A stretch of DNA of 28,653 nt from an uncultured Planctomycetaceae bacterium (GTDB lineage: Bacteria; Planctomycetota; Phycisphaerae; SM23-33): positions 1-28,653 of the forward strand of contig CAYWTX010000329.1 in assembly GCA_964461295.1 (NCBI GenBank). Direction: 5' to 3'. The translations under genes and the position numbers were made by a program. Numbering within the stretch: position 1 is the first letter of the stretch; every line of letters starts with the position of its first letter. This document shows positions 1,407 through 28,653 of the stretch, in pieces. The notes under the pieces were generated by a model. It did no database searches. It saw only the letters and a list, made by a program, of their open reading frames with translations, and was not told the origin of the DNA.

Positions 1407-1452
1407 AAAGACTTCAGTCTCTCCGTTCTATTATCGACTATCGCGTGCGAAG

Positions 1453-1470: not shown

Positions 1471-1513
1471 CATTCGCCAGGCAAGATGATAGTAGCTCTG
1501 GAAAGAGTGAAAC

Positions 1514-5900: not shown

Positions 5901-6460
5901 TCTCGTTTCGTGACGGCAAGGGCGATTACGGGGCGTGGGCCAACATGGCGAACATTGGGAGTTTCAAGACCAAAACGGGGGCCACGGTCACAATACCCGC
6001 CGGTGCGAGTGAGCCGGTGACGCTGCCGCCCGGGTTCTTCAGTTGGGCCGACCAATCGGCCGCCAGGCCGTTCTCCCTGGTCGCAGAACCGGGGTCCGGG
6101 CTCATGCAGACCGTAGGGGGAATGAACAGCAAAGGTTTTGCCATGTTTGTGAGCGCCACATGGAAGTCCATGCCGCGGTACACTCCCAATCCCTGGGGGT
6201 TGCACAACATGCACGGGAACGCGGCCGAATGGACGGCCACCGCCTATCGCCCCTATCCCTATGATGGGAAAGACGGACGCAATGAGGATGGCGGGGGCCT
6301 GCGCAGAGTGGTGCGTGGCGGTTCCTGCTTTGACCTGCCCACGCATTGCACAGCCAGTGTGCGTACATCGTTCCGCAGTTGGCAGGGCGTCCACAACGTG
6401 GGATTCCGCGTCATATGTGAAGTGGTCGACCCTGGCGAGAAAGCACGGGACCAGGAGTGA
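2999..6460 (+). CDS. Exported multidomain protein: TolB/PD40-like beta-propeller + two CxxCH heme-c motifs + C-terminal SUMF1/FGE-sulfatase-like domain
   Basis: The frame is open from 2900. The ATG at 2999 follows GAGGTGG and begins a signal-peptide-like segment (MSARSNAHWMAASLVGSLLCLSCLAAQ). Propeller blade motifs are DPVYMPDGRIVFLSTR, FSMKADGSDVRQLTF, WDPAVMNDGRVMYVRWEY and IFTMNPDGTNQRAL. The heme motifs are CVGCH at 4766-4780 and CAGCH at 4919-4933. FGE-sulfatase signatures appear in the last ~300 aa (LIPAGEFMMG, RVSWQQAAAFCRWLS, RLPTEAQWEWACRAGS, NMHGNAAEWT, RVVRGGS). Confidence 0.85.
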   Translation: MSARSNAHWMAASLVGSLLCLSCLAAQRGPSPATNPGVAAPASAPASSGVNGPDDTVAKAARLRLAIEDLIATFGDRYARGREYLRRLNALVEGRGQESLDELRDQALLDNPLLDDIQGLLVLVGAGGSDGGTMSVSAHIGKAIGLVSPVRPGKSETAPGMKILYESKLGPEEVAKYKCKWDASKGSVGFINLHYDARKFLFSAAARNGYQIFEMNVDGSGLRQVSSDEHPYVDNFDPVYMPDGRIVFLSTRMFQGVPCLGGEPHVANLFSMKADGSDVRQLTFEQDEDWDPAVMNDGRVMYVRWEYADTPHHHTRLIFTMNPDGTNQRALMKSNSYWPNAIFYPRPIPNHATRFVGVISGHHGGGRSGPMYVFDPGMANEASSAVVQRIPPDPNELHKSPRWLEESSYDGPPRMSCPKYSHPHPLADAEGRGAGKYFLAGGAVVDVFGNSVGLAGGGAEVVPIQVRPRPPIIPDRTDRTRKDALVYLADIHRGGGLEGVPRGTVKKLRVFEYSFGYRDTKSAGEAGKGWSGPWEPHRIWGTVPVEADGSAHFLVPAMTPLALQPLDAEGKALQVMRSWFVAQPGESISCVGCHERPKDVSSGTMVGAAFRRPPNPIEPWYGPPRGFGFHREVQPVLNKHCAGCHTGANVPKGVRKPNLVSESLRVSTAKNGRTAINPSDSFTNLLPYIHRPSSESDYVMHPAAEFDADASPLIQMLRSGHGGVKLDAESWDRLVTWIDLNAPAFGTWREGWSIPAPQGGEEDFSELRRKMRRLYAGIDDDPESVPSSPVDLGPPVKHQSPPAAPVPDCPGWPFDPNAAAKMQQTAGARTSRRVVLVAGETARDVVLDMALIPAGEFMMGANEGRPDERPMARVKIDRPFWMGTFEITNQQYNLFDRQHDSRYHNQPSCHLGGRGWPMNHPLQPVVRVSWQQAAAFCRWLSEKTGEKFRLPTEAQWEWACRAGSDKPLSFRDGKGDYGAWANMANIGSFKTKTGATVTIPAGASEPVTLPPGFFSWADQSAARPFSLVAEPGSGLMQTVGGMNSKGFAMFVSATWKSMPRYTPNPWGLHNMHGNAAEWTATAYRPYPYDGKDGRNEDGGGLRRVVRGGSCFDLPTHCTASVRTSFRSWQGVHNVGFRVICEVVDPGEKARDQE

Positions 6461-14930: not shown

Positions 14931-16049
14931 TCATGCCCTCATCGCGTTCTCGACGCAGTTGCGGACAAAGTCCTCGCAGGCCCAGCCGGCGAAGTCGACG
15001 GCCGAGGCGAACCCGCCTTCGGGCGAGATATCGGGGTTGGGGTTCACTTCGAGCACCATCGGGCGTCCGGCCTCGTCGAGGCGGAAGTCCACGCGGGCGT
15101 AGTCGCGGCAGCCGAGAGCCTGCCAGGCCCGCAGGCTGATCTGCCGCGTCAGCCGTTCGACGCGGCGAGGCAAGGGGGCGGGGAGGATCCGGGGAGTATT
15201 GTTGTATCCGAACGTGTTCGGCAGCCACTTGGCCGCGTAGTCCACGATCCGGTGCATGCCGGGCTGGAACGTGGAGAAGTCGATCTCGGCGACGGCTAGC
15301 ACCTCGGCCTGGCCGGCCCGCTCAACGACCGAGACGTTCAGTTCGCGGCCGTCGATGTACTGCTCGACGATGGCCGGCTGGGCGAATTTCTCGTGGATCT
15401 CGCGGAGGGCGCGGGCCAGGCGGGGGCCGGCGCCCGGCACGATGGACCGCTCGGCGTGGATGCCTTCGGATGCGTCGGTGAAGACGGGCTTGACGATCAG
15501 CGGCCCAGGCGGCAGGTCGGCCCGCGAGACGCGCTGGCCGGGATCGACGAGCACGGCCCGGGGCACGGGCACGCCTGCGGCCGACAGGACGGCCTTGCTC
15601 CGCCACTTGTCCAGCGACAGGGCCAGGCATTCGGTGGTGTTGCCGGTGAAACTCCGTCCCATCGCGATGCAGACGGCGGGCGCCAGGTTTGCCTCCTGCG
15701 GGCGCTGCTGGAAGCCTTCGACGAGGTTGAACACGACGGGCTCATCGCCGGCGGCGAGGGCGGCGGGCACATCCCGTAGCGTGGCGGCCGAGGCCTTCCG
15801 GCAGGTCGCGCCGAGGCGGTCGAGGGCGGCGGCGACGGCGTTGACTTCCTCCAGGACGCCGGCTTCGCTCTCGATGTAGCCGCCGGCGGCGCCGGCAGCG
15901 GCGGGCTCGTTGTAGAGGATGACGACGGAGGGGAGCCTTTCGCGCCGGGATTCCTCGCGCCGCGAGCGATCGGACCCAAAACGGGCGAGCCGCTCTCTTC
16001 CCGAGAATCGGCAATCGGCAATCGGCAATTCGCACTCTCCCTTACGCAC
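14931..16049 (-). CDS. ATP-grasp ligase, D-alanine--D-alanine ligase-like (second of two)
   Basis: Ddl-family landmarks are present: SVVILYNEP…ESEAGVLEEVNAVAAALDRLG, LIVKPVFTDASEGI, AIVEQYIDGRELNVSVV and VLEVNPNPDISPEG. The GTG at 16049 overlaps the upstream stop by 8 nt. An alternative in-frame TTG at 16028 lies 7 nt after AAGGGAGAG. No ATG occurs before the conserved core. Confidence 0.8.
   Translation of the reverse strand: MRKGECELPIADCRFSGRERLARFGSDRSRREESRRERLPSVVILYNEPAAAGAAGGYIESEAGVLEEVNAVAAALDRLGATCRKASAATLRDVPAALAAGDEPVVFNLVEGFQQRPQEANLAPAVCIAMGRSFTGNTTECLALSLDKWRSKAVLSAAGVPVPRAVLVDPGQRVSRADLPPGPLIVKPVFTDASEGIHAERSIVPGAGPRLARALREIHEKFAQPAIVEQYIDGRELNVSVVERAGQAEVLAVAEIDFSTFQPGMHRIVDYAAKWLPNTFGYNNTPRILPAPLPRRVERLTRQISLRAWQALGCRDYARVDFRLDEAGRPMVLEVNPNPDISPEGGFASAVDFAGWACEDFVRNCVENAMRA
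16006..16030. repeat. 3.5 tandem copies of the heptamer AATCGGC at the junction of the two ATP-grasp genes
   Basis: AATCGGC AATCGGC AATCGGC AATT is read directly. On the coding (minus) strand it gives GAATTGCCGATTGCCGATTGCCGATTC, with TTG triplets at a 7-nt spacing. One of these (16028) is a candidate start codon. Confidence 0.6.
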
Positions 16050-17019
16050 GTTTCATCGCGCTCAGAAGGATCTCCGAGATCAGATGTCTGTAGCTCATTC
16101 CTTCCTGCGTGGCGATCATCGGCAGGTCGCTGTGCGTGGGGTGCATGCCCGGCAGCGGGTTGACCTCGATGAAGCTCGGGCGGCCGTCGGCGTCGAGGCG
16201 GATGTCGACGCGGCTGACGTCGCGGCATTCGAGGGCGATGTGTGCCCGCAGGGCGAGGTCCTCGACGGCGCTGCGGACAGGCCCGCGCCGCGGGGCCGAG
16301 TAGCGCACCAGTTTCTCGCACTTCTCCTTCATCTCGAAGGAGTAGATCGCCTTGCCGTCGTCGGGCAGGATCTCCACCTCCATCGTGCCGATCACGCGGG
16401 CGTCGGCCCCCGTGCCGAGGACGGCGGTGGTGAACTCGCGCCCGGGGAGGTACTCCTCCACCAGCACGCTCTGGCGGTACTTCGCCAGCAGCGCTCGGCA
16501 TGCGGCGGGGAGCTGGTCGGGCGTGTCGATGCGGGAGGCGGCGTCGATGCCCTTGCCCGTGCCCTCGGCGATGGGCTTGACGAACAGCGGGTAGCGCAGT
16601 GCATGGCCGTCCAGTTGGGCTTCGCTGCCGACCACGAGGAACTCCGGCGTTCGCAGGCCGGAGGCCCGCACGAGCCGTTTGGCGACGGCCTTGTCCAGCG
16701 TGGCCGCGCTCACCAGCGGGTCGGAGAACGTGTACGGCACGCCGTACAGTTCGAGAATGGCGGGCACCTGGGCCTCGCGGCTGCGGCCGGCCAGGCCCTC
16801 AGCGATGTTGAACACGAGGTCCCATCGGTCGCCGGCGACGAGACGCTTGCACAACGCGCGGGCATGGCCGATGCGGTCGGTCGTGTGGCCGAGCGAGCCA
16901 ATGGTCGACTCGATCGCCTCGATGGTCGATTCGCTGTCGAACTCCGCGACGTCCTCGATGCCGTAGCCTTCGGCGAGGTAGTCGGTCCGCAGATCGTATG
17001 TCAGGCCGATGGCGGCCAT
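16042..17019 (-). CDS. ATP-grasp ligase, D-alanine--D-alanine ligase-like (first of two)
   Basis: The ATG at 17019 is preferred over the TTG at 17046 (MAAIGLTYDLRTDY…). Motifs are LFVKPIAEGTGKGI, VLVEEYLPGREFTTAVLG and FIEVNPLPGMHPTHSDLP. The protein ends at TAA 16042-16044. Confidence 0.85.
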   Translation of the reverse strand: MAAIGLTYDLRTDYLAEGYGIEDVAEFDSESTIEAIESTIGSLGHTTDRIGHARALCKRLVAGDRWDLVFNIAEGLAGRSREAQVPAILELYGVPYTFSDPLVSAATLDKAVAKRLVRASGLRTPEFLVVGSEAQLDGHALRYPLFVKPIAEGTGKGIDAASRIDTPDQLPAACRALLAKYRQSVLVEEYLPGREFTTAVLGTGADARVIGTMEVEILPDDGKAIYSFEMKEKCEKLVRYSAPRRGPVRSAVEDLALRAHIALECRDVSRVDIRLDADGRPSFIEVNPLPGMHPTHSDLPMIATQEGMSYRHLISEILLSAMKRA

Positions 17020-17071
17020 GGGTGCTCCACATCGATCAAGCCGCAAGGGACGCGGGCAAAGAAGAGACGTT

Positions 17072-17096
17072 CACAGATCACACAGATATCACAGAT
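17072..17096. repeat. Three copies of CACAGAT at 9-nt period in the kamA/ATP-grasp spacer
   Basis: CACAGATca CACAGATat CACAGAT is read directly. It is followed by an 8-bp hairpin, CAAGAGGA-N8-TCCTCTTG, at about 17097-17120. Confidence 0.5.
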
Positions 17097-17186
17097 CAAG
17101 AGGACAAGGTTCTCCTCTTGTCTTTCCTCTGCGCAATCTGCACTACTATCCGCAACTTTCTTCGTCTCCCGCGCTGATTCTTCAAT

Positions 17187-17213
17187 CGCAGAGGGCGCAG
17201 AGGACGCAGAGAA
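17187..17213. repeat. Three copies of CGCAGAGnn at 9-nt period in the same spacer
   Basis: CGCAGAGGG CGCAGAGGA CGCAGAGAA is read directly. Related CTCTGCG/CTCCGCG words recur at about 17137-17146, 17231-17260 and 17322-17335. A 7-bp hairpin, CGCGGGC-AAG-GCCCGCG, lies at 17270-17286. Confidence 0.5.
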
Positions 17214-17345
17214 GGGCTCTGGAAGAAGGTCTCCGCGATCTCGGCGTTCTCTGCGATCAGCCCTTCGGTCGCGGGCAAGGCCCGCGCTGGGCAATCCACG
17301 GACCGTCTCTTCCCTGCCCCTCCGCGTCTCCGCGGCCAGCGACGT

Positions 17346-18746
17346 TCACTGAAACAACGGGGTCTGGATGGTCTGCACGTGCTCGTGGCTCGCGCGGGGT
17401 TGGGGGGTGCGGCCCTGCACGCTGGGGCGCACCTTCGCCTCGCGCCGGTCCTGGCGGGCCGTGTGCGCCGGCTGAATCTTCGACGCCCGCCCGCACGTCA
17501 GGTCGTGGACGGTGGGGGAGTCGATCTCGGCCGTCGCGGGCGCCACGTTGGCGTTGGGCTCCGGGTAGGACACGAGCACGCCTTCGAAGTTCCGAAGCAC
17601 CGTGTGCGACGGGCTGCTGGAAACGATGTACGTGGGCAGCACGGGGATCTTGCCGCCGCCGTGGGGGGCGTCCACGACGAACGTCGGGATCGCCAGCCCG
17701 CTCAGCCGCCCGCGCAGAAACTCCATGATCTCCACGCCCCGGCTGATCGGCGTGCGGAAATGCTCCACGCCGCGGACCAGGTCGCATTGGTACAGGTAGT
17801 ACGGGCGCACGCGCATCCGCACCAGCCGCCGGCAGAGGTCCATCATCAGGGCGGGGTCATCGTTGATCCCGCGCAGCAGCACGGACTGGTTGCCCATGGG
17901 CACGCCCGCGTCGACGAGCTTGCGGCAGGCTTCCCGCGCTTCGGGCGTGATCTCCGAGGGGTGGTTGAAGTGCGTGTTCAGCCACAGCGGGTGGTGCTTG
18001 CGCAGCATGGCCACCAGCGAATCGGTGATCCGCATGGGCATCGTCACGGGCACGCGCGTCCCGATACGAATGATCTCGACGCTGGGCACGGCCCGCAGGG
18101 CCGCCAGGACCCGGTCCAGCGCCTCGTCGCCCATCGTGAGCGGGTCGCCGCCGGATACGATGACGTCATGCACTTCGCCGTGGGCCGTCAGGTACGCCAC
18201 GACCTGGCTCAGGCGCGAGGCGGAGATGCACGATTCCCGGTGCCCGGCGGCGCGCTTCCGCGTGCAGTGCCGGCAGTACATCGCGCACGTCGTCGTCGCG
18301 ATCAGCAGGGCGCGGTCGCCGTAGCGGTGCACCAGGCCCGGCACGGGCATGTCGTGGTCTTCCTCGAGCGGGTCGTCGGCCAGGAACGGCGGATCGAACA
18401 GCTCGTGAAGCTGCGGCACGGCCATGCTGAAGACCGGGTCGGTGGGCCCCAATTCGCGAATGAGCGAAGCATAGTACGGGGTGATCGCAAGCGGAAACTT
18501 CTCGGCGGCCTGTGCCAACCCCGCTTCAGGCCGCAGGGAAGGGTAGAATTCCTGAAGCTGCTCCACGCTTCGGATTCTGTGGCGCATCTGCCACTGCCAA
18601 TCGCTCCAGCGAGCGTCGTTTCTCAGCGAGGCAAGCTTGGCCGATGGCGTTACGCCGTCTGCCCGTCCGCCTCCGTCCGTGCCGGCGGACTTAGATGGAG
18701 GTTCATCACTTGAAACTGCGTCCGAGGCTTCGACCATTTCTAGCAT
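17346..18746 (-). CDS. kamA: Lysine 2,3-aminomutase (KamA/AblA family radical SAM, PLP-dependent)
   Basis: The radical-SAM cluster motif CAMYCRHC lies at 18264-18287. By recollection the protein is near full-length colinear with clostridial KamA (WSDWQWQMRHRI…ITPYY…DPLEEDHDMPVPGLVHRY…VSGGDPL…WLNTHFNHPSEIT…GNQSVLLRGIND…RPYYLYQCDL…PTFVVDAPHGGGK). The frame is open to GTG 18779. The ATG at 18746 is preceded by AGGAG, which overlaps the TetR stop codon (TAGGAG). Confidence 0.9.
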   Translation of the reverse strand: MLEMVEASDAVSSDEPPSKSAGTDGGGRADGVTPSAKLASLRNDARWSDWQWQMRHRIRSVEQLQEFYPSLRPEAGLAQAAEKFPLAITPYYASLIRELGPTDPVFSMAVPQLHELFDPPFLADDPLEEDHDMPVPGLVHRYGDRALLIATTTCAMYCRHCTRKRAAGHRESCISASRLSQVVAYLTAHGEVHDVIVSGGDPLTMGDEALDRVLAALRAVPSVEIIRIGTRVPVTMPMRITDSLVAMLRKHHPLWLNTHFNHPSEITPEAREACRKLVDAGVPMGNQSVLLRGINDDPALMMDLCRRLVRMRVRPYYLYQCDLVRGVEHFRTPISRGVEIMEFLRGRLSGLAIPTFVVDAPHGGGKIPVLPTYIVSSSPSHTVLRNFEGVLVSYPEPNANVAPATAEIDSPTVHDLTCGRASKIQPAHTARQDRREAKVRPSVQGRTPQPRASHEHVQTIQTPLFQ

Positions 18747-18759
18747 AAACACGATTCTC

Positions 18760-19470
18760 CTACTTCTTGGGTTCGGCACCGGCAGGCCCCGTCGTCGTAC
18801 CCGGTTGGATCGACGGGGGCGTCCCCTGGTTGGCCAGGAACGCTTCAGACGCCGCTACAAACGCCTGCCGCATCGGACCCAGACTTTTCTTGATTTCCTC
18901 GGCCGCAAGATCGATCATCGCAAACGAAAGGAAGCCGGAAACAAACCCGGCTATCGCGTACGTCAGCCTCTGCACCTTCTTGCGGTCAAGTTGCAGCACA
19001 AAGGGCGTAAGGAAGTTCTCGATCTCGGTGAGATACCGCCGGTACGGCTGTTCCAGGTCCTCGATGGCTTCGCGCTGCAACTTCAGCAGCAACCTGCCCT
19101 GGAACAACAGGACGAACGCGTCGCGGCTGGTCTGCGAGAAGTCCCAATGCACCAGCAGCAGGCGGTCGAGGGCTTCAGGCAAGTTGCGCGGGGCAGGCTT
19201 GTGGTCGGAAAGTGCCGTAAGCAGAAGAGTTACCACGTCATCCACCAAAGCCACCATCAACTCCTCCCTGCAAGAGAAGTGCCGGTAGAAAGTCCCCTTG
19301 CCCAGGTCGGCCGCTTCGGTGATCTCTTCGATCGTGGTCGCGTCGGAGCCCTTGTCGGCGAACTTGCGGAGCGCTGCGTCCAGCAACCGCTTGCGGGTGC
19401 GTGAGGTACGTCGCGCGGAGCGTGTCTTGCGTGCTTCAGATTGTTCCACTGCAATCGCCATTTCGACCAA
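18760..19470 (-). CDS. TetR/AcrR-family transcriptional regulator
   Basis: The N-terminal HTH is RKRLLDAALRKFADKGSDATTIEEITEAADLGKGTFYRHFSCREEL, followed by an all-helical ligand-binding-type C-terminus. The start is TTG at 19470 or ATG at 19461. This is the first gene of the minus-strand cluster. Confidence 0.9.
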   Translation of the reverse strand: MVEMAIAVEQSEARKTRSARRTSRTRKRLLDAALRKFADKGSDATTIEEITEAADLGKGTFYRHFSCREELMVALVDDVVTLLLTALSDHKPAPRNLPEALDRLLLVHWDFSQTSRDAFVLLFQGRLLLKLQREAIEDLEQPYRRYLTEIENFLTPFVLQLDRKKVQRLTYAIAGFVSGFLSFAMIDLAAEEIKKSLGPMRQAFVAASEAFLANQGTPPSIQPGTTTGPAGAEPKK

Positions 19471-20044: not shown

Positions 20045-21955
20045 CTACTGCCTCTTGCCGCAAGCGGGGCAGAAGCCTCCGCCGGATTCCAGGGCGGCGC
20101 CGCAGTGGCGGCACCTGGCGCCCGCGCCGATGACCACCGGCGTGCCGGCCAGGCCGGCGACCACCATCGGTTGCGGCGCGGCGCGGCGCCCGGCCGCGGC
20201 CGCCGTCACCGCCGCCACCACCTGCTCCAGCGATGTCTTCATCAGCCGCTCCATGCGGTCGGCGTGCGAATCGGCCATCTGCTTCTGGTCGGCAAGCTGT
20301 TTCTCCAACGCGGCGGCCCGCTCCCCCGAGATCGCGCCCTCGTCGCGGTACTTCTGGGTCAGCGCCCTGGCCGCCTCCGGCGAGGCCGCCGCCGCCAACG
20401 CCAGAATCTGATCCGGCGTCATGTTCTGCTGCGCACGCACCCGCTCCAGCTCGACGATCCTCTCGGCGGCCGGGCCGTCCACAATCGCCATGATCGCCCG
20501 CGACGTGCTCTTGCTCAGCGCCTCCAGCCGCGCCGCCTCACGCTTCTGCTCGCGGTCCAGCGCGTCCTGTTCAACGGCCACCGTCTCCCGCAGCAGCCGC
20601 TGGCCCAGCTCCGCCTCCGCCTTGTCCCGCGCGAACTCGTCCCACTCGACCTTCTTCTTCAGGGCGTGCTCGGCCTCCTCCTGCCGCAGCTTCTCGCCGT
20701 GCTCCAATCGGCCCATCTCCAGCCGCACCTTGCCCTGTTCGGCCTCGCCCTTTGCCGCATCCAGGCGCCGCTGAAGACCGCGCATCTGCCGTTCGTCCTG
20801 CCGCCTTTCGTCGTGCAGCAGCGCTTCCCACTGCTTGGCCCGCTCGGCGCCGTCCTGAAGCGTCTCGATCTCGATCCGCCGCAGGATGCCCTCGCGGCCG
20901 CGCTCGAACTCCAGCCTTGCCGCCAGCCGCGCCATCTCGTCGCCCCGGATGACTTCCCGGAGCCCCAGTTCGTGCTCGGTCTGGCGGATGAACTGCTCGA
21001 GGTCCTTGCCCGTCTTGAACTCGTGCATCTTGTCCGTCGAGAACGTCTCCCGCAGGCGCTGGGCCAGCCTCGTCCGCTGCTCGGTGACGTCGGCCTCGCG
21101 ATCGGCAAAGCCCGCGCTCCGCTGCTTGTCGGCCAGGTCCGCCTCCCGCCGGCGAATCCTCTCGTAGGCCTCGCCGGCGAAGCTGACGAAGCGGATCTGC
21201 ACCAGCTCCAGCCCCATGCGCCGCAGCGTGGGCGCCACCGCCTGGCGAAGGTCTTCCTCGATCCGCGCGCGGATGGCGGGGTCGGTGAACAGCCGCTCGG
21301 CAGGATGCCGGCCGGCAATGCCCGCCAGGAGCATCTGGACCTCGTCGGCAAGTTGCTGCTCCATCTCGGCGACCGTCAGGACGTTGCGGCCCTTGAACAG
21401 GTTGACGTACAGCGCGTCCATGTCGGCGATGCGAAAGACGAGCCGCTCCACGCTGCCGACCTCGATCTTGTCGGCCGTCCACAGGCCGCCGTTCTCCAGG
21501 TCGATCGTCACGTCGCCGGCGTCGATGAGGACCACGGATGCGTCCTGATCGATCATGAAATGGTTGAGCCGGTTGAGGAACCCGCCCATGTCATGCCGGC
21601 CGGCCGGCAGTTCGGCGCGGAACCTGCCGGCCTGGAAGAGCAGCGCTCGCGTACCGTGGTCGATCACCAGCGGCTTGGCCAGCCAACCCTTGACATCCTG
21701 GTTGTCCACCCGGACGGCGAAGTCGCCGTCGCGGCGCGACCAGCGGTCGTTGAGCAGCGTCGGCTTGGCCACCTGCGACAGGTCGGCGCCGCAACGCCAG
21801 CAGAACTTGCTCGTCCGGGCCACCTCCGCGGCGCAGGACCCGCACTGCGTGAGTCCCTTGGGCCCCACGGCCCCGCACTTGGGGCAGAACTGCGAGCCCT
21901 TGCGCACGCGATAGTCGCATTCCCGATTCACGCACCGGTTCGTGAACAATCCCAT
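20045..21955 (-). CDS. Double zinc-ribbon + SPFH/Band-7-like domain + long Glu/Arg-rich coiled coil + C-terminal zinc-ribbon protein (YdjI/COG4260-like)
   Basis: The ATG at 21955 lies 6 nt after AAGGAG. The N-terminus has two CxxC…CxxC ribbons (CVNRECDYRVRKGSQFCPKCG; CGSCAAEVARTSKFCWRCG). Residues ~70-270 read as the Band_7_1 type of SPFH domain (…LVIDHGTRALLFQAGRF…GRHDM…VVLIDAGDVTIDL…VERLVFRIADMDALYVNLF…GLELVQIRFVSF). About 300 aa of heptad-like ER/EA/QR-rich sequence follows. The protein ends RCRHCGAALESGGGFCPACGKRQ. Confidence 0.75.
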   Translation of the reverse strand: MGLFTNRCVNRECDYRVRKGSQFCPKCGAVGPKGLTQCGSCAAEVARTSKFCWRCGADLSQVAKPTLLNDRWSRRDGDFAVRVDNQDVKGWLAKPLVIDHGTRALLFQAGRFRAELPAGRHDMGGFLNRLNHFMIDQDASVVLIDAGDVTIDLENGGLWTADKIEVGSVERLVFRIADMDALYVNLFKGRNVLTVAEMEQQLADEVQMLLAGIAGRHPAERLFTDPAIRARIEEDLRQAVAPTLRRMGLELVQIRFVSFAGEAYERIRRREADLADKQRSAGFADREADVTEQRTRLAQRLRETFSTDKMHEFKTGKDLEQFIRQTEHELGLREVIRGDEMARLAARLEFERGREGILRRIEIETLQDGAERAKQWEALLHDERRQDERQMRGLQRRLDAAKGEAEQGKVRLEMGRLEHGEKLRQEEAEHALKKKVEWDEFARDKAEAELGQRLLRETVAVEQDALDREQKREAARLEALSKSTSRAIMAIVDGPAAERIVELERVRAQQNMTPDQILALAAAASPEAARALTQKYRDEGAISGERAAALEKQLADQKQMADSHADRMERLMKTSLEQVVAAVTAAAAGRRAAPQPMVVAGLAGTPVVIGAGARCRHCGAALESGGGFCPACGKRQ

Positions 21956-22083: not shown

Positions 22084-22743
22084 TCACAGCGGACGCATGG
22101 CGTGTTTGATGATCCGCACGATACCGCGCAGGATCGCCATGGCGATCAGGAACGCCACCAGGGCCGCGACGATCACCAGGGGGTACCGCCAGAACTGGCT
22201 CACGGCTTCCGACCAGTGCATGTACGCGTCGCCCTCGACCGGCCCGCTGCTCCAGACGATCTGCCCGGTTTCCACGGCCGCCAGATGCACGGAGACCTTG
22301 ACGCGCCCGCGGATGCTCCACATGTTGACGGACTCATCCCAGATTCGCCCGTACAGGATCGCGCTGACGCCCTGAATCCTGCCGAACTTCTGGATCGTCG
22401 CGGCGTCCATGATGTCCTTCTGGCGAACGCCGCGCTCGATCTCCGCCACCAGCTTCTTCCACGTCTCGTCGTTCCTGGTGAACAGGCTCAGGTCGGTGCG
22501 GGTCACGGCCGTCTTCAGCAGGTTCGTGACGTACTCCTCCTTGTCGCCCTCGACAGGCAGGACGGCGACGCTGCCGGTCTTGGGGGCAAGCCGGGCCGCC
22601 CGCAGCGACTGCTCGATCTGCGCGACGGCCTTCTCCGAAGCTCGCTGGAGGGTCTCGCGCTCATTGCCCGCGGCGGGAGCGGCCAAGGCCGCCAGGACGA
22701 CCGTCGCCGCCACGCCCGCGATCGTTGCACGCGTCATCATCAT
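22084..22743 (-). CDS. Small bitopic envelope protein: signal peptide, LpoB/CsgG/FlgO-like periplasmic domain, C-terminal TM anchor
   Basis: The real start is the ATG triplet run at 22735-22743, 8 nt after AAGGAG, and not the 649-aa ORF start at 24033. The signal is MMMTRATIAGVAATVVLAALAAPAAG. The pattern SVAVLPVEGDKEEYVTNLLKTAV…GVSAILYGRIWD…VSVHLAAVETGQIVWS is typical of that fold class by recollection. The C-terminal hydrophobic helix is YPLVIVAALVAFLIAMAILRGIV. Confidence 0.65.
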   Translation of the reverse strand: MMMTRATIAGVAATVVLAALAAPAAGNERETLQRASEKAVAQIEQSLRAARLAPKTGSVAVLPVEGDKEEYVTNLLKTAVTRTDLSLFTRNDETWKKLVAEIERGVRQKDIMDAATIQKFGRIQGVSAILYGRIWDESVNMWSIRGRVKVSVHLAAVETGQIVWSSGPVEGDAYMHWSEAVSQFWRYPLVIVAALVAFLIAMAILRGIVRIIKHAMRPL

Positions 22744-22808: not shown

Positions 22809-24704
22809 TCACTTCGCTCCCCCGGGCGCCGCAGCGGCCTGCCTGGCCGCCAGGCCCCGGACCTTGCCGGCCCCGATACCCGCGGCCGCCTTGCGAAGGG
22901 CATCGACGGCTTCCTTGTCGCCGCGATCGTGCAGCAACTCGTATTTCGCCGCATACGTCCTGGCATCCCAGCCTTCCAGCGAGGCATAGTGAACGCCCCT
23001 CAGTCTGGCCAGAGCAGCGCGGAATTGCTCCGCCGCCGCCAGCGAGCCCAACTCGCCCACTTCGCAATCCAGCACGACCGGCCGTGCCGCGGCGACGGCC
23101 TTGTCGGCGGCCGAGAGCAGCTTCTCGGCCAGTTCGCCCGCGGCCGCCTTGACGGCGCTGTTGGCGGCGTCCTCCTCGCGGAGGAGACGTTCGCCCCGCT
23201 TGGCGGCCGTCGTGACGGCGGCCAGTTCCAGCCGCGCCGGATCGAGGATCCGGCCCGCCAGCGAGGCGTCGAACGAGTAGAAGTTCCCGAACTTCTCGTT
23301 GAGCTTGGCCGCGCCGCTGGTGTGCACGAAGAAGCTCGCCTCGCCCGCGACCACCCGGTAACCGGCCTTCTGCAACGCCTCGGCCAGCACCCGGCTTGCG
23401 GCGGCGGTCTTCGCCGACCCGCCCGACAACTCCAGCGTTTCCTCGCAGAGGATCCGCACGAGACGCAGCTTGTCGGCCGCTTCCTTCGCGACCGCGGCCT
23501 TCTGGACGGCTCCCAGCGTCGGCACGGGCACGACCGGGTTCATCCGCGCGGCTACCTTGACCAGCCCGCCGGCCTCGACGCAATCCGTCACGGTCACGCC
23601 CGCTCTGCCGAACTTGCCGGCCGCGGCCTCGAAAACCTTCCGGACATCCGGCGTGCCATGGGGCACGAAGGCCGTGAAGATGGCTACCCCCACCTTGCAC
23701 GACACCAGTGTGGCCGCCAGGACCGATTCCTGCCCCTTCATGTGGTCGCGAAGGGCGGCCGCATCCGCTTCGCTGGGGACGTCCGACACCGTCAACTCGA
23801 CGCGGATGGGCGCCGGCGGATTCACCCGGCCCTCCACGCGGATGGGCTTCGCGGTCGCCGTATAGGACGTCACCTCTATGCCCCGCGGGGAATGCTTCTC
23901 CAGCCCCGCCGTCAGCGAGGGGCGGAAATCCCGGGAACCGGGGGCATACGCGATCGTGAAGCTGCCCTTCCCGCCGCTGAAGGCGCCAAGCTTGACCGAC
24001 TGCACGCCGGGCAGTTTGCCGAGGTAGTCGCACAGGGCGTCGGCGGCCCTCACGTCGGCAAGATCGACCACCGTCAACGCCACGAGGATGGGTTGCGGCC
24101 GAGGCGGCGCCACAACCGGGGGCGGGGGCGGAACCGCTTCGGGCGGCTTGACCACGGGCGGCGGCGGCGGGGGCGGAACCGCTTCAGGCGGTTTGACCAC
24201 GGGCGGCGGCGGCGGGGGCGGAACCGCTTCAGGCGGTTTGACCACGGGCGGCGGCGGCGGGGGCGGAACCGCTTCGGGCGGCTTGACCACGGGCGGCGGC
24301 GGCGGGGGCGGAACCGCTTCAGGCGGCTTGACCACGGGCGGCGGCGGCGGGGGCAAGGCGGGCGCGCTCACGCCCGCCAGGACTCGGGCCGTTCGCCCGT
24401 CCACGAAGTACTTCTTGACGCTCGCGCCGCACTTGCCCAGGTTCCGGGCGAAGTACTCGTGCTGGGGGACATCGCCCCCCCTGGCGGCGATCAGGTACTC
24501 AGCCCGCCCGGTTGCCTCGTCCCAGCCTTGCAGTGCAACGCTGTCCGGCTGGAACTGTCGCGACAGGTCGGCGTGCAGCGAACTCGCCTGCTGCCGGGCG
24601 GCCACGCCGTCCACGGCGACCTCGGCCTTCCAGCCGCAACCGGCCAGGGCGCCCGCCGCCGCTACCATGAATGCCGCCTTCCACAGCGACCCTATCGGCT
24701 TCAT
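22809..24704 (-). CDS. Lipoprotein with a 5 x 15-aa polyproline spacer and several repeated ~50-aa alpha/beta modules
   Basis: The ATG at 24704 lies 8 nt after AAGGAG (frame open to 24788). The lipobox is MKPIGSLWKAAFMVAAAGALAGC. The repeat (VVKPPEAVPPPPPPP) occurs five times. Recurrent module starts are AEVAVDGVAARQQASSLHADL, ILVALTVVDLADVRAADALCDYLGKLPGV, IRVELTVSDVPSEADAAALRDHMKGQESV and VVLDCEVGELGSLAAAEQFRAALARLRGV. Confidence 0.75.
   Translation of the reverse strand: MKPIGSLWKAAFMVAAAGALAGCGWKAEVAVDGVAARQQASSLHADLSRQFQPDSVALQGWDEATGRAEYLIAARGGDVPQHEYFARNLGKCGASVKKYFVDGRTARVLAGVSAPALPPPPPPVVKPPEAVPPPPPPPVVKPPEAVPPPPPPPVVKPPEAVPPPPPPPVVKPPEAVPPPPPPPVVKPPEAVPPPPPVVAPPRPQPILVALTVVDLADVRAADALCDYLGKLPGVQSVKLGAFSGGKGSFTIAYAPGSRDFRPSLTAGLEKHSPRGIEVTSYTATAKPIRVEGRVNPPAPIRVELTVSDVPSEADAAALRDHMKGQESVLAATLVSCKVGVAIFTAFVPHGTPDVRKVFEAAAGKFGRAGVTVTDCVEAGGLVKVAARMNPVVPVPTLGAVQKAAVAKEAADKLRLVRILCEETLELSGGSAKTAAASRVLAEALQKAGYRVVAGEASFFVHTSGAAKLNEKFGNFYSFDASLAGRILDPARLELAAVTTAAKRGERLLREEDAANSAVKAAAGELAEKLLSAADKAVAAARPVVLDCEVGELGSLAAAEQFRAALARLRGVHYASLEGWDARTYAAKYELLHDRGDKEAVDALRKAAAGIGAGKVRGLAARQAAAAPGGAK
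24127..24351 (-). repeat. Five perfect-phase 45-nt tandem repeats encoding the polyproline spacer
   Basis: The unit is GGCGGAACCGCTTC[G/A]GGCGG[C/T]TTGACCACGGGCGGCGGCGGCGGGG, repeated five times, with a degenerate partial copy from about 24106. The only differences between copies are two positions that are synonymous on the coding strand (CCC/CCT Pro, AAG/AAA Lys). Confidence 0.95.
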
Positions 24705-24798
24705 CGCCTGGTCTCCTTCTCCAGATTTCCAGAGCGTTCGTTCTTCTGCCTGCCGGTGCATCTCGCGCGTCACGGCGCCCTGCCGCACGCACGCGGAA

Positions 24799-25971
24799 TC
24801 ATGCGTTCGCCTGCTGCCATTGGCGATACCGCGCCGCCTGTTCGTCGTTGGCCTGGGGCACTGTGGCGGCCAACTCGAAATCGCCGATCGTCAGCGGGCG
24901 CACGCGAAGCCGGTAGCCCTCCACCGCACGTCGCCCCGCGTCCACATGCCGCAGCAGGTCGGGGTTCTGCTCCATCACCATCCGCTGCACGGCCGCTTCG
25001 CAGAGCTGCGCAATCCGCCGCCCCGAATGACCGTCCGTGCGCTTGACCAGTTCCTCCGCGCCGCCGCTCAGGGAGTAGCCCTTCCGGCCGATGGCGATCT
25101 CCAGTATGCCGCGCCGCACTTCGGCATCGGGCAGCGGCACGTACACGCGGCGGTCGAACCGCGAAAGAATGGCCGCGTCCAGCAGCCAGGGCAGGTTCGT
25201 CGCCGCCAGCGTGAGGATGAACGTGTCGCGCCCCTTCTCCGCCAGGCCGTCCAACTCCGCCAGCAGTGTGGCCAGCAGCCGACGTTCCGGCCCGCCGCTG
25301 TCGGCTGAGTCGCGACTGGCCGACAGGGCGTCGAACTCGTCGAAGAATACCACCGCCGGCGCGTGGCGCCGGGCTGCCGAATACAAGGCCTCCACCAGCT
25401 TCGTCGATTCGCCGAAGTACTTGCTCAGCATGTTGGACGTCTTGACGTTGAAGAACGTCGCCTCCAACTCATTGCTGGCCGCCGCGGCCAGGAGCGTCTT
25501 GCCCGTGCCCGGCTGGCCGAACAGCAGGATGTTCCTGCCGCCGGCCAGGCGGACTCCCTCGGGCCGCTCGGCCAGGGCGAAACCGTAGGACAGGCGAATC
25601 TGGTCCTTGACCTCGCCCAGTCCGGCCACGTCCACCCACGTGATGGACGTCTTCTCAATCAGGGCTTCGGCGGCGGAGGCGTATTCGTCGCCGGCGTCAT
25701 CGCCTTCCACGGCCGGGGCAGGCTTCGCCGGCTCGACGGCGGGGGCCAGGCGCAGCGACTCGGCTTCGCGGCGGTACTGTGCGGCCAGCTTCATGCGGCG
25801 CTGCTTCTCCGCCGGCGTGACCGCATAGGAGGCGTATCGCTCGGCCAGGGCGGCGCAGCCCTCGTAGGCCTCGGCGGCCGCGGCCGGCCTGCTTTCCTGG
25901 CGGAGCCCCTTCGCACGCTCCAGCCCGCGCTGTAGCGAGTCGTGCACGCTCTTGCTGAGGTCGATCCCCAT
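24799..25971 (-). CDS. Vps4/katanin/spastin-clade AAA+ ATPase with an MIT-like N-terminal three-helix region
   Basis: The ATG at 25971 follows GGAAGGAAGGA. Walker A is GQPGTGKT (25495-25518), pore loop 1 is SKYFGESTKLV and Walker B is AVVFFDEFDAL. The segment ATNLPWLLDAAILSRFDRRVYVPLPD is nearly colinear with Vps4 [24 protein letters not shown]. The small-domain and C-terminal helix region is …TDGHSGRRIAQLCEAA…LTIGDFELA…DEQAARYRQWQQ. The N-terminal ~75 aa (…AAAEAYEGCAALAERYASYAVTPAEKQRRMKLAAQYRREAESLR) resembles an MIT domain. Confidence 0.8.
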   Translation of the reverse strand: MGIDLSKSVHDSLQRGLERAKGLRQESRPAAAAEAYEGCAALAERYASYAVTPAEKQRRMKLAAQYRREAESLRLAPAVEPAKPAPAVEGDDAGDEYASAAEALIEKTSITWVDVAGLGEVKDQIRLSYGFALAERPEGVRLAGGRNILLFGQPGTGKTLLAAAASNELEATFFNVKTSNMLSKYFGESTKLVEALYSAARRHAPAVVFFDEFDALSASRDSADSGGPERRLLATLLAELDGLAEKGRDTFILTLAATNLPWLLDAAILSRFDRRVYVPLPDAEVRRGILEIAIGRKGYSLSGGAEELVKRTDGHSGRRIAQLCEAAVQRMVMEQNPDLLRHVDAGRRAVEGYRLRVRPLTIGDFELAATVPQANDEQAARYRQWQQANA

Positions 25972-26020: not shown

Positions 26021-26662
26021 TCACACCGGCTCGGGCGCCTCGCCTTCCTTGTCGCTCTTGGCCAGGATCTGGTCGACCTTCTTCATTCCCGTTTCGGCGG
26101 CGGCGGGGTTCTCGACTTCCGCGCTGCGCGCTTCCTGCATCGCCGCCACGATGGCCATGGTGTCCTCGTCCTCCACGCCGGCCAGGTCCACCCCATCCGG
26201 CGACTCCATGGTCTTGAGGATCTGGGCGAACCGCTCCATCTGGAACTGCCCCTCGACCGTCGCCTGCTCGACGTACTTCTGGAGCTCGTCCAGATCCATC
26301 CTGCTGACGACGCTGCTGACGCCCAGCTCCTTGACCAGCGACTCGTTCTCCTTGATGGCCGACAGGCCCGACAGGATGCGCACTTGCCGCGAGATCATCG
26401 CGAGCTGGCGGTCCTTGCCCTTGCCCCCGGCGTCCAACTCCTTGATCTTGCGGGCGATGGCGATCTGCTGCCGTTGCGAAGTCTCGTCCTTGCCCTTGAC
26501 GAAAAGCTGCTGCTTCCGCTTCTCCAGGTCGTCCACTTCCCGTCCCACCCGCTGCTCGACCTGCTCCAGGCGCAGCCGCTCCTTGCGGAGCTCGTCGATC
26601 GTGATCTTCTGGAGGCTCTTCTTGCCCGACAGCATGCCCATCAGCTTGCCCAGCAATTCCAT
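26021..26662 (-). CDS. ESCRT-III/Snf7-like (CdvB/CHMP-like; PspA-superfamily) helical protein
   Basis: 213 aa, with the ATG at 26662 lying 6 nt after AAGGAG. The protein looks all-helical. It is colinear by eye with yeast Snf7: IDELRKERLRLEQVEQRVGREVDDLEKRKQQLFVKGKDETSQ against LREHINLLSKKQSHLRTQITNQENEARIFLTKGNKVMAK, and MDLDELQKYVEQATVEGQFQMERFAQIL against [27 protein letters not shown]. It has a short hydrophobic N-terminal helix (MELLGKLMGML), an acidic segment (GVEDEDTMAIVAAMQEA) and a terminal amphipathic helix (MKKVDQILAKS). Confidence 0.65.
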   Translation of the reverse strand: MELLGKLMGMLSGKKSLQKITIDELRKERLRLEQVEQRVGREVDDLEKRKQQLFVKGKDETSQRQQIAIARKIKELDAGGKGKDRQLAMISRQVRILSGLSAIKENESLVKELGVSSVVSRMDLDELQKYVEQATVEGQFQMERFAQILKTMESPDGVDLAGVEDEDTMAIVAAMQEARSAEVENPAAAETGMKKVDQILAKSDKEGEAPEPV

Positions 26663-26701: not shown

Positions 26702-28015
26702 CTACCGCTTCGATGCCACCAGCCCGATCTCCGGCAGGTCATCCACGATGAACTCGCCGGTCCTGGCCATCTCCCCGAACGCCGCGCGCATCCAGGCCTC
26801 GTGCGCCGCCGCCTTCCGCCCCGCCGCCGCCAGCGAGATGCTGTCCTTGCTCACCAACTCCTCCCGCACCGACGAAATGCACTGGCGCACCTTCTCGGCG
26901 AAGGCCGCGGGATCCAGGATCGGCAGGAATGCCGCCAGACGCTCGTCGCTCTCGTCCCGCCAACTGCGCCCGGTGTGCAAATCCACCAACGCCGCCGCCA
27001 GACGCCGGTCCCGAAAATGCCTCACGCAGGCCGCGTCGGCCACTACCGCGCCGGCGCCGGCCGTCCATCCGGTGGGCGAACCCACCAGCGACACGCGGAA
27101 GCAGTTGGCGTGCTTCGCCTCGTCCGCCATTGCGTTCAGCAGCGACAACAGCTCACACTCCGTCACCGGTTCGGCGTCGAAGCCCGCCGCCGCGATCGCG
27201 TCCACGCGACAGACGAACCGGCCCTCGATCACCAGGCACGCCTTTGGACGCCCCCATCCACCCGCCCGCAGCGTGAACCGGCTGACGGCGCCGCACGGCA
27301 GGGGGCCGCCAGCCCGCGAAGCCGCCTCGACTTCGTGCTTCACCCGCGCCTTGCGCAGCACCAACTCAAGGTTCGACAGCGGCTCGGGCAGACGTTCCAC
27401 CTGCTCCAGCCGCTGCGCGAAGCTCCTGAGGAACGTGTCCTCCGCCACCTTGACGTCTTGGCGGCATACCACCGCCCGCCCCTCCGCGCGAAGGCGGGCC
27501 ACTACCTGCTCGACCGGCTCCAGCCCCGGCGGCGCCGCCGCCGAAGCCCTTGCCGCCTCGCCGGCCGCCTGCTTCTCCCCTGCCCCCGCCGGGCCGCAAA
27601 CCGATGCCGCCGCCGGTTCGAGGGGCTTCCCCTCAGACCCTTTGCCCGACTCCTCGGCTTCCTCGTCGGGCGCCGGCGGCGCGGTCACGCACTCGTGGAT
27701 CTTCTTGATCGTCCAGCACGCCTGGCAGATGGGCTTGCCCGTCGCCTGGCAGAGACCCCCGATCGACAGCTCGCTGAGGATTCGCGCTCCGCACGCTCCG
27801 CACCGCAGCCCGCCGATGGCCGCCTCGCCTTGGACCTGCGAAACCATCAGCCGCTTCTGCCCCTCGAAGTACCCTTCCAGGTCTTCCTCGCGGATGCGAT
27901 AGACCCGGCCTATCCGCCCAGCCGGCAACTCCCCGCTCCGCACGAGGCGGTAGAGCGTCTTGTATTCCACGCCCAATTTCCTCGCCGCGTCCTCGAGTGT
28001 CAGATAGGCGCCCAT
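26702..28015 (-). CDS. Excisionase/MerR-type HTH + four-Cys zinc ribbon + low-complexity linker + ~250-aa unassigned C-terminal domain
   Basis: The ATG at 28015 is preceded by GAAGGGACGGGAG. The HTH_17-like N-terminus is LTLEDAARKLGVEYKTLYRLVRSGELPAGRIGRVYRIREEDLEGYF. The CxxC…CxxC motif is LRCGACGARILSELSIGGLCQATGKPICQACW. The linker is Ala/Pro/Glu-rich. I recognise no motif in the C-terminal domain. Confidence 0.7.
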   Translation of the reverse strand: MGAYLTLEDAARKLGVEYKTLYRLVRSGELPAGRIGRVYRIREEDLEGYFEGQKRLMVSQVQGEAAIGGLRCGACGARILSELSIGGLCQATGKPICQACWTIKKIHECVTAPPAPDEEAEESGKGSEGKPLEPAAASVCGPAGAGEKQAAGEAARASAAAPPGLEPVEQVVARLRAEGRAVVCRQDVKVAEDTFLRSFAQRLEQVERLPEPLSNLELVLRKARVKHEVEAASRAGGPLPCGAVSRFTLRAGGWGRPKACLVIEGRFVCRVDAIAAAGFDAEPVTECELLSLLNAMADEAKHANCFRVSLVGSPTGWTAGAGAVVADAACVRHFRDRRLAAALVDLHTGRSWRDESDERLAAFLPILDPAAFAEKVRQCISSVREELVSKDSISLAAAGRKAAAHEAWMRAAFGEMARTGEFIVDDLPEIGLVASKR

Positions 28016-28065
28016 CTCCCGTCCCTTCGATTTGCCGTGCGTCCCACTTTGCGTCTAGCGGGTAC

Positions 28066-28094
28066 ATTCTCTTGCCGAAGCTTACCCCCGTCAA
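28066..28094 (-). promoter_or_regulatory. Sigma70-like promoter for the six-gene operon: TTGACG-N17-GAGAAT on the minus strand, with an A-rich UP-like tract upstream
   Basis: The -35 is the reverse complement of 28089-28094. The -10 is the reverse complement of 28066-28071. The spacer is 17 nt. On the minus strand the -35 is preceded by AAGAAAAGTAAACAAAAGTG (about 28095-28115), the most AT-rich patch of the region. The predicted leader to the ATG at 28015 is about 45-50 nt. Confidence 0.4.
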
Positions 28095-28282
28095 CACTTT
28101 TGTTTACTTTTCTTACCTCTCAGTTCCTTCATTGACGACTCCGGCCACCTTCGCCCCGTTCGCGTGGCCGCCCCCATAGGGGCTCGGCCGCTTCGCGCTC
28201 GCGGTCCCCTCCCGGTCGTCCTCGTCGTCGTCGGCTGTTTCCCCTCCCTCCCGCCCACCCCGCCATCGCCCTCCCGGCGCGA

Positions 28283-28310
28283 GAAAGATGCGCCTAAAGG
28301 CGCATCTTTC
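28283..28310. terminator. Perfect 13-bp inverted repeat GAAAGATGCGCCT-AA-AGGCGCATCTTTC; bidirectional terminator-like hairpin
   Basis: Read directly. Each arm ends in a TCTTTC pyrimidine run on either strand. It lies about 190 nt upstream of the operon promoter, in a region with no credible ORF, and may insulate the operon from upstream transcription. Confidence 0.35.
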
Positions 28311-28439
28311 CCGGCAAACGCGCCCCAACCCGTACCCCTCCGGCCGGAGTTCCCCTCGAAAAGTGGGCGTGTACGCACCTGTCGGCCGCGCCGCCGATGC
28401 GATACCGGCGCCAGGCGCAGGCGGCTACCCCGGGCGGCC

Positions 28440-28653
28440 AACGTAAACTGGTATAGATTGGGTTCAGTATCCGTCCTTGGATTCCTGGGAAGTGGTAGGC
28501 CCGGCGGGCCGGCATCGGGTAGCCCCGTCCGTAAGGGCGGGGATTGCGAGCAAAGCGAACCGAAGAGGCCCGGCGGGCCGACAGAGCACGCCCGTCGACG
28601 GTGGACAAGCCGGCACCTGTGCCGGCCCTCCGGGCCTTGACCGTTTCCTGGCT
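28440..28653. repeat. Hairpin-dense, REP-like non-coding sequence at the window edge
   Basis: The 14-nt word GGCCCGGCGGGCCG occurs exactly twice (28498-28511 and 28567-28580). Hairpins are CCCCGTCC-GTAA-GGGCGGGG (about 28523-28542, one mismatch) and GCCGGCAC-CT-GTGCCGGC (28609-28626, perfect). There is no credible ORF, and the feature is truncated by the window end. Confidence 0.3.

Follow-up and report, generated by a model that had tools for sequence, protein, structure and literature searches.

The stretch of DNA analysed here, called the window throughout, is the complete 28,653-nt contig CAYWTX010000329.1 of assembly GCA_964461295.1, from an uncultured Planctomycetaceae bacterium of the Phycisphaerae lineage SM23-33. 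Six co-directional genes, with intergenic gaps of 10-128 nt, occupy its right-hand part, and our subject is the first of them, at 28015..26702 on the reverse strand, which encodes a protein of 437 amino acids (aa). An earlier note, made from the sequence alone, had taken this gene to be the head of an operon and to fuse a DNA-binding helix-turn-helix (HTH) to a zinc ribbon and an unassigned domain, and its place at the head is borne out by the gaps, by a sigma-70-like site upstream, and by the first position of the gene in all related loci. The GC content at third codon positions of the open reading frame (0.87) is that of real genes in this window of 66% GC, a Shine-Dalgarno-like GGGAG is present, and the protein's N-terminus aligns with those of the 34 further full-length relatives (31-58% identity) found by a homologue search among 5.8 billion proteins. 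The few relatives that carry a name, including one from a Phycisphaerae metagenome-assembled genome (MAG), are labelled "excisionase family DNA binding protein" or "helix-turn-helix domain-containing protein." The AlphaFold2 model made from the resulting 35-sequence alignment (mean predicted local distance difference test score, pLDDT, 86.5) reads, from N to C terminus, as a winged HTH (residues 1-60), a small zinc module (70-110), a disordered linker, an alpha/beta domain (165-357), and a C-terminal winged helix (~369-437).

The last ~270 aa of the protein match nothing in Pfam, NCBIfam, or PADLOC, and nothing in the PDB by sequence or profile. The description of this part as an unassigned 250-aa domain thus stands as far as library motifs go and fails as to a single domain, since the structure prediction that the earlier note had proposed gives two confidently modelled domains, the alpha/beta domain and the winged helix, with pLDDT mostly >90. 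The assignment comes instead from a family of long-form proteins of 510-670 aa. In hhalign, the alignment of the 437-aa protein's family (A1) matches the alignment of the long-form family (A6) with a probability of 100% (E 2.1e-41, 261 columns, residues 178-437). A search with the A6 profile retrieved proteins of Thermococcus profundus, Archaeoglobus, Methanophagales, and Dehalococcoidia; the T. profundus long-form protein (P0210) is WP_088858746.1, assigned in Table S2 of Makarova et al. to arCOG09748 (PMC10936438), and BLASTP aligns the 437-aa protein with it directly at 27% identity (E 5e-14, residues 232-436). [quoted passage not shown] Because A1 matches A6, A6 includes WP_088858746.1, and Table S2 lists that accession, we assign the C-terminal module to arCOG09748: judged by these alignments, residues ~178-437 are the bacterial counterpart of the archaeal family. 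The module is hence a member of a known family, and none of these searches matched the C-terminal part to an unrelated enzyme or regulator family. In the literature that we searched (an incomplete library), arCOG09748 was mentioned by Makarova et al. only, and neither a bacterial homologue nor its HTH or kinase fusions were described. The rest of the protein is different: unlike archaeal arCOG09748 proteins, with their helical and coiled-coil N-terminus, it lacks that region and carries an HTH_17 domain, the zinc module, and the disordered linker in its place.

The idea that this gene encodes an adaptor accompanying an ESCRT-III/Vps4 pair is backed by the arCOG09748 homology and also by the homology of the neighbours to the Snf7 and Vps4 proteins of the same archaeal locus. 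That locus, in T. profundus, runs 171 aa, arCOG09748, 202 aa, 205 aa, 81 aa, Ser/Thr kinase, pentapeptide protein, and Vps4 (AAA plus Vps4_C). The 213-aa product of the second gene of our operon aligns with the T. profundus 205-aa protein (BLASTP E 4e-14, 25% identity over 198 aa), and an HMM (hidden Markov model) of its family scores 92.5 bits on that protein and 59.8 bits on the 202-aa protein (the database being very small for E-values). From position and accession order we infer that the 202- and 205-aa proteins are the arCOG09749/09747 "Snf7 family" entries for T. profundus in Table S2. The 213-aa protein has no Pfam match and no PDB sequence or profile match, leaving its "Snf7-like" label unconfirmed by that route, and the two T. 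profundus proteins have no Pfam Snf7 match either; we call it Snf7-type only because it matches the archaeal arCOG09747/09749 proteins. The next gene encodes a single-domain AAA ATPase that shares 38% identity with T. profundus Vps4 from end to end (E 2e-80); among NCBIfam models CdvC fits it best, though below the model cut-off, and it has no Vps4_C match in Pfam. Three consecutive genes of the operon are, on this comparison, homologous to three components of one archaeal, Thermococcales-type ESCRT locus. The correspondence extends to organization: the gene for the homologous central domain and winged helix immediately precedes Snf7-family genes, a Vps4-type ATPase is encoded nearby, and Ser/Thr kinases occur in archaeal and bacterial loci alike. 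In contrast to the archaeal loci, the hosts are Planctomycetota and Chloroflexota, an arCOG08177 partner was not found, and genes for SPFH, Pro-rich, and transmembrane proteins are appended. The features of the operon are collected in Table 1; within its fourth gene (24788..22809), the five PPPPPPPVVKPPEAV copies are near-perfect, tandem, and located at 24090-24400 on the reverse strand. The relatives of its product in type B loci are shorter, at ~336 aa, and are encoded ahead of the transmembrane and SPFH genes.

Table 1. Features of the operon and of its first gene, with positions in the window.
Feature	Position	Strand	Basis
Whole gene: HTH_17, zinc module, linker, arCOG09748-type module (alpha/beta plus winged helix); 437 aa	26702..28015	-	Open reading frame, homologues, AlphaFold2
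HTH_17/excisionase-type winged HTH, residues 4-53	27857..28006	-	Pfam HTH_17, TIGR01764
Cys-rich zinc module, residues 68-112	27680..27814	-	Invariant Cys columns, eight-ligand family pattern
Disordered Ala/Pro/Glu/Gly-rich linker, residues 113-165	27521..27679	-	Composition, pLDDT, identity
Central alpha/beta domain, residues 166-362; conserved motifs SRF, GYD, SPTGW	26930..27520	-	Homologous to arCOG09748 "globular central domain"
C-terminal winged helix, residues 363-437	26705..26929	-	Homologous to C-terminal winged helix of arCOG09748
Sigma-70-like promoter TTGACG-17-GAGAAT, 50 nt upstream of ATG	28066..28094	-	1 found vs 0.1 expected
Purine/A-rich direct repeats G(G/T)AAA, 10-bp phasing, abutting -35	28095..28127	-	Sequence, cross-locus consensus
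213-aa ESCRT-III-like protein, homologous to archaeal arCOG09747/09749 "Snf7 family"	26021..26662	-	BLASTP, family HMM
390-aa single-domain classic AAA ATPase, Vps4-like	24799..25971	-	PF00004 E 4e-34
659-aa protein, PPPPPPPVVKPPEAV repeated five times; "type B" loci have a related ~336-aa protein	22809..24788	-	Translation, phmmer
219-aa protein: N-terminal signal-like segment, C-terminal transmembrane helix; conserved beside SPFH gene	22084..22743	-	Translation, phmmer
636-aa SPFH/Band-7 protein, N- and C-terminal zinc ribbons, operon's last gene	20045..21955	-	Pfam Band_7, Zn_Ribbon_1, DZR; conserved in related loci

A profile of the central domain, run against 1.84 billion cluster representatives, gave 367 proteins, the best 150 of which were classified, together with close homologues, using our own domain HMMs. 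The commonest architecture among them is HTH-Zn-central-winged helix. The module, as Zn-central-winged helix or central-winged helix, also stands C-terminal to a zf-HC2 (anti-sigma) plus Ser/Thr kinase region (P0049, P0050, P0138), to a kinase with no zf-HC2 match (P0058), and to a 250-400-aa region without a Pfam match (e.g., P0087, P0089, P0094), and it occurs in short proteins, some of which are fragments. The long form has one member from a Hydrothermarchaeales archaeon and is encoded by Dehalococcoidia MAGs as well (P0201). Bacterial hosts, as seen in metagenome and GTDB loci, are Planctomycetota (Phycisphaerae, Tepidisphaerales, Brocadiaceae, Isosphaeraceae) and Chloroflexota (Anaerolineae, Caldilineales). 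The system is rare and patchy, with 35 clusters at 90% identity and, in a pattern-limited scan of 185,579 species genomes, 23 loci, ~15 of them encoding a full-length or near-full-length protein. On one metagenomic contig (L034:8381-14156) the gene for the long form is accompanied by an arCOG08177-like gene, by three genes of the Snf7 type, and by one for Vps4 (Vps4_C E 1e-7), with FGE-sulfatase proteins and an integrase on the flanks.

In every related locus compared, the HTH-family gene comes first. Type A loci have the HTH gene, the 213-aa gene, usually the AAA gene, and often the gene for the SPFH protein with zinc ribbons (the window, L001, L004, L005, L006 in its copy at 3351, L007, L009, L013, and L015-L017); type B loci have the HTH gene followed by genes for a Pro-rich secreted-type protein, a 220-aa transmembrane protein, and an SPFH protein (L003, L006, L008, L010, and L012). 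The window operon combines the two arrangements. The module is still followed directly by a gene of the 213-aa family when it has another N-terminus (L030, L032), and so it is as part of the long form (L034, L036). One variant is P0049 (L030:1481-4436), in which zf-HC2 plus Ser/Thr kinase is the fusion partner: its gene is first in an equivalent operon, right after a gene for an ECF (extracytoplasmic function) sigma factor, and is followed by the 213-aa gene, an AAA gene, a 198-aa gene, a second AAA gene, and then the SPFH gene. Elsewhere a central-winged helix gene, called as a stand-alone 295 aa with its reading frame open upstream of the called start, lies directly before the 213-aa and AAA genes. 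Short HTH proteins of 122-126 aa hold the corresponding position in four loci (L019:3443-3820, L020:10001-10366, L021:10001-10378, and L022:10001-10369); they keep an (S/D)L(S/D)IGG motif and a remnant of the zinc region with most Cys ligands lost. Two of these loci (L020 and L022) are type-B-like, with the HTH-only paralogue preceding SPFH-type genes without an ESCRT-type module; in L021 it precedes a truncated p336-like gene, and L019 ends too soon to show downstream type-B genes. Co-occurrence, which the earlier note had suggested checking, is complete in that each conserved version of the locus examined in Planctomycetota and Chloroflexota contains the gene or its C-terminal module. Related loci also hold a second paralogous pair (L001:15955-17699, L004:5247-6980, L006:6042-7756, and L030:6323-8043), consisting of a ~198-aa protein that starts MGLFKSKDERR (Pfam Snf7 E 0.004-0.013, sub-threshold) and an AAA protein with a weak Vps4_C match. 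In hhalign the 213-aa family did not match this second small family (probability 0.95%), and the window has the 213-aa/AAA pair only. Ser/Thr kinases, many with FGE-sulfatase domains, and FHA proteins flank many of the loci.

For the central domain, Foldseek against the PDB gave nothing at E <= 0.001; its fold matches include the nuclease domains of Cap4, Avs, Can2, and HamA, and also YqgP-NTD. Residues E192, H227, S245, D280, G316 (within SPTGW), and R359 are invariant. The canonical D...(D/E)xK is not conserved, Ser245 standing where the Asp is expected and E264 and R266 varying (to Ala, Gln, Ile, and others), and an active nuclease is rejected on these motif grounds. With moderate confidence we regard the domain as a distant, non-catalytic derivative of the restriction-endonuclease-like fold. 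We rate as very improbable the proposal that the protein is an anti-phage or stress sensor whose HTH and nuclease-like domain would detect invading DNA and set off a membrane or abortive response through ESCRT and SPFH proteins. What can be said for it is the fold with its matches to defence nucleases, together with weak HTH matches to MADS MAD1 and AbiEi, IetA-like matches for the AAA protein, OLD-family nuclease and helicase genes close by in L001, and diversity-generating retroelements (DGR) close by in L003 and L006. The plainer proposal is a one-component autoregulator whose C-terminal domains would sense a small molecule, a metal, or phosphorylation, the last signalled by the neighbouring Ser/Thr kinases and FHA proteins, with no contact to ESCRT-III or Vps4. 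A ligand-type domain after an HTH, in a protein encoded first in its operon, would suit such a regulator, as would the match to YqgP-NTD, a metal-binding regulatory domain, the conserved strand-loop-helix SPTGW motif, and the recurrence of kinases and FHA proteins in the loci. However, the module is present in archaeal ESCRT loci without any DNA-binding domain, and it keeps its strict adjacency to the ESCRT-III-like gene whatever the fusion; we consider this proposal quite unlikely.

For the N-terminus, the earlier placing of an excisionase/MerR-type HTH at residues ~4-50 agrees with the profiles: Pfam HTH_17 (PF12728) matches residues 4-53 (E 2.6e-16, 60.1 bits against a cut-off of 27) and NCBIfam TIGR01764 "excise" residues 4-51 (E 7e-14, 51.9 bits against a cut-off of 28.8). 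The modelled fold is a winged HTH of the MerR-N/Xis/BldC type, and BldC (MerR-like), which binds direct repeats as head-to-tail multimers, is among the structural matches. It is the most conserved domain of the protein, with a mean pairwise identity of 71% as against 39-47% in the C-terminal domains. Known HTH_17 proteins of the BldC/Xis/MerR-N kind are either small and stand-alone or, as MerR regulators, equipped with a coiled coil plus an effector domain, and none of them carries an ESCRT-type module. A MerR-family activator was rejected, the model being without a C-terminal coiled-coil dimerisation and effector domain, and so was a MerR-type operator arrangement with its 19-bp spacer, the promoter spacer here being 17 nt with no palindrome inside.

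The zinc module that follows is less simple than the four-Cys ribbon (CGAC...CQAC) of the earlier description. That description holds for the intact site, C72/C75/C97/C100; it does not hold for the family, in which eight ligands arranged as CxxC-x13-CxxC-x4-CxxC-x8-CxxH suggest a two-zinc module. Across the alignment C72, C75, C89, C97, and C100 are invariant (35/35) and C109 is kept in 33/35. The 437-aa protein and ~10 relatives have lost two ligands together, with Thr or Ser for Cys at position 92 and no His112, and the second site of the 437-aa protein (C89, T92, C109, A112) is degenerate. The module has sub-threshold matches only, to FYVE (E 0.016-0.04), B-box (E 0.1-1), ZZ-like, and C1-like domains; the Zn_Ribbon_1 and DZR profiles find nothing in it at E <= 10, and one relative matches DZR_2 at E 0.38. 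The suggestion that this module is shared with the SPFH protein was accordingly dropped, the ribbon profiles matching the SPFH protein (Zn_Ribbon_1/DZR, E 1e-10) but not the module of the HTH protein. The linker was correctly described as Ala/Pro/Glu-rich: it is 28% Ala, 15% Pro, 15% Glu, and 15% Gly, has a pLDDT of 40-53, and is unconserved among the homologues (13% mean pairwise identity).

A DNA-binding domain joined to an ESCRT-type module invites comparison with archaeal CdvA, which the earlier note had drawn as an analogy only. The parallel holds in the neighbours, ESCRT-III and Vps4, and in the logic of a DNA-binding, non-ESCRT-III protein that is encoded beside such a pair and could recruit the polymer. 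It breaks down in sequence and fold. CdvA combines a PRC-barrel with a coiled coil and an E3B tail; the 437-aa protein matched no CdvA or PRC profile in the NCBIfam and Pfam scans, its domain composition in the model differs, and its C-terminal part is of the arCOG09748 type instead. The winged helix, moreover, sits on CdvB in the Cdv system and not on the adaptor. The subunits of ESCRT-II (Vps22/SNF8, Vps25, Vps36) also count among the nearest known systems. Another rival is that the protein is a DNA-membrane tether, a nucleator like CdvA or ESCRT-II: its HTH would bind DNA of the chromosome, of plasmids, or of other kinds, whether broadly or at scattered sites, and its C-terminal module would nucleate ESCRT-III there, linking DNA to scission, vesicle packaging, or division, with transcriptional control secondary or absent. 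CdvA does bind DNA and recruit CdvB. The family of the module has been proposed as the ESCRT-locus adaptor, a 2025 review cites links of ESCRT-III to DNA and chromatin, the very high conservation of the HTH would fit a conserved DNA target, and the end of the operon encodes membrane proteins, SPFH included. Yet in one variant anti-sigma/kinase replaces the HTH at the same position in the locus, so that the regulatory role is kept and DNA tethering is not; related operons are headed by short HTH-only paralogues, as is usual with small regulators; and a system so rare and patchy speaks against a core role in division. We judge a tether unlikely.

The region upstream of the gene bears on what the HTH might bind. 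Equivalent pairs of -35 and -10 elements are found upstream of the orthologues, and across 15 loci the purine/A-rich stretch before the -35 has the consensus GGAAATnnAnGnAAATAAAAGnAAAnAAAAGnnTTGACA. A strict version of the pattern, with three repeats, has a single occurrence in the window (0.01 expected), in a test that is partly circular as the pattern was derived from the same sequence. We regard the phased G(G/T)AAA element as a candidate operator to which the HTH might bind, or else as a curved UP-like element. The palindromes that the earlier note had suggested looking for in 28016-28140 did not materialize in any convincing form. Only three inverted repeats were found within 27990-28653, and each was rejected as an operator: a hairpin with 16-nt arms at 28280-28313 is well upstream, a 21-nt inverted pair at 28566-28637 is far upstream near the end of the window, and an 11-nt palindrome over the start codon is explained by coding sequence. 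The hairpin, ~270 nt upstream of the gene, has arms CGAGAAAGATGCGCCT and AGGCGCATCTTTCCCG (94% complementary, with a 2-nt loop); without a T-run, it may mark the end of an upstream transcript.

The reading that we favour, at about even confidence, makes the protein an adaptor-regulator in two parts that serves a bacterial ESCRT-like system and whose N-terminus ties transcription of the operon to the state in which that system finds itself. The starting points, domain architecture, homologies, and conserved gene order, are direct observations. From the strict adjacency whatever the N-terminal fusion, and from the family role proposed in the literature, the module would contact the ESCRT-III-like protein or else the ATPase. 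A transcriptional output for the N-terminus is suggested by the gene's place at the head of the operon, by the HTH-only paralogues, by the anti-sigma/kinase swap beside an ECF sigma gene, and by the conservation of the HTH. Autoregulation of the operon is plausible because of that position, the short paralogues, the swap, and the phased repeats upstream of the -35. Mechanistically, the C-terminal module would dock on the 213-aa ESCRT-III-like protein and/or the downstream Vps4-like ATPase, and the HTH_17 domain would bind DNA, the likeliest target being the phased G(G/T)AAA repeats abutting its own -35; a free adaptor, and one engaged with and sequestered by an ESCRT-III assembly at the membrane, would then differ in their effect on transcription of the operon. 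Such a circuit would resemble the PspA-PspF partner switch, and also LiaFSR-LiaH, in its proposed logic of a transcription factor set by binding a co-encoded protein of the ESCRT-III superfamily; moreover, SPFH proteins are known partners of PspA, and an SPFH gene is also part of the bacterial ESCRT-like operon. Homology is not involved: PspF is an AAA+ activator of the sigma-54 type and PspA a member of the PspA_IM30 family, whereas the operon has an HTH_17-fusion regulator, an archaeal Snf7-type ESCRT-III, and a Vps4-like ATPase.

Several observations weigh against this adaptor-regulator reading. The N-terminus of the archaeal homologues is helical and coiled-coil with no DNA-binding domain, and regulation is thus not the ancestral role of the module. 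In phmmer searches with T. profundus, L034, and L035 homologues, no arCOG08177 partner (Cas2-like plus TBP-like) was found in the window or in the bacterial loci. In four loci (L003, L008, L010, and L012) the full-length protein has no adjacent 213-aa gene and is accompanied by Pro-rich, transmembrane, and SPFH genes instead. As for the DNA target, the strict repeat pattern recurs in one other locus only, upstream of the L007 orthologue, and the promoter at 19509, which is unrelated, carries a similar CAAAGT just ahead of its -35 (CAAAGT-TTGACT); these two findings weaken the case that the A-rich element is a specific operator, and it may be a generic UP-like or curved one.

The remaining genes of the window and of its relatives are noted for completeness. 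A gene at 2900-6460 on the forward strand encodes a 1186-aa protein with FGE-sulfatase and HZS_alpha domains. On the reverse strand, 14931-18779 holds a lysine-2,3-aminomutase-like radical SAM gene followed by two ATP-grasp genes of the D-Ala-D-Ala-ligase type, which may form a beta-lysine peptide or compatible-solute cluster unrelated to the ESCRT-like finding, and the far end of the window (105-2836) holds genes for an AAA_14/DUF4143 ATPase and an ADP-ribosylglycohydrolase. Among related loci, L001 has a DO-GTPase2-like protein (a weak match) inserted between the SPFH-related gene and the AAA gene (L001:13336-14598) and an OLD-family (AAA_15/TOPRIM) nuclease just downstream (L001:18959-20932), a defence-island-like context; DGR parts (bAvd and reverse transcriptase), many FGE-sulfatase proteins, and kinases lie beside two others (L003:5715-8062, L006:1264-2702).

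Vps4-type ATPases, or systems of Vps4 with ESCRT-III, have been stated to be absent from bacteria (PMC10936438, PMC7619361), and a 2025 review likewise describes a Vps4-like ATPase as apparently absent in bacteria. We lean, if only slightly, towards the view that Planctomycetota and Chloroflexota possess a genuine archaeal-type ESCRT module, made up of an arCOG09748 adaptor, an ESCRT-III of the Snf7 type, and a Vps4-type ATPase, whose adaptor is fused to an HTH or to anti-sigma/kinase, wiring ESCRT-III assembly to DNA or transcription. The central domain of arCOG09748, previously uncharacterised, gains a fold hypothesis, that of a degenerate restriction-endonuclease-like core. The HTH and anti-sigma/kinase fusions are natural experiments that point to transcription as the partner of the adaptor module, and promoter activity would be a simple read-out for the assembly state of ESCRT-III in a bacterium. 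The finding also has a bearing on the history of ESCRT accessory components, which may be older than the split between archaea and bacteria or may have moved by horizontal transfer. If the proposal is true, it would provide an experimentally tractable ESCRT adaptor that reads or writes gene expression, perhaps one relevant to membrane remodelling in the FtsZ-less Planctomycetes.

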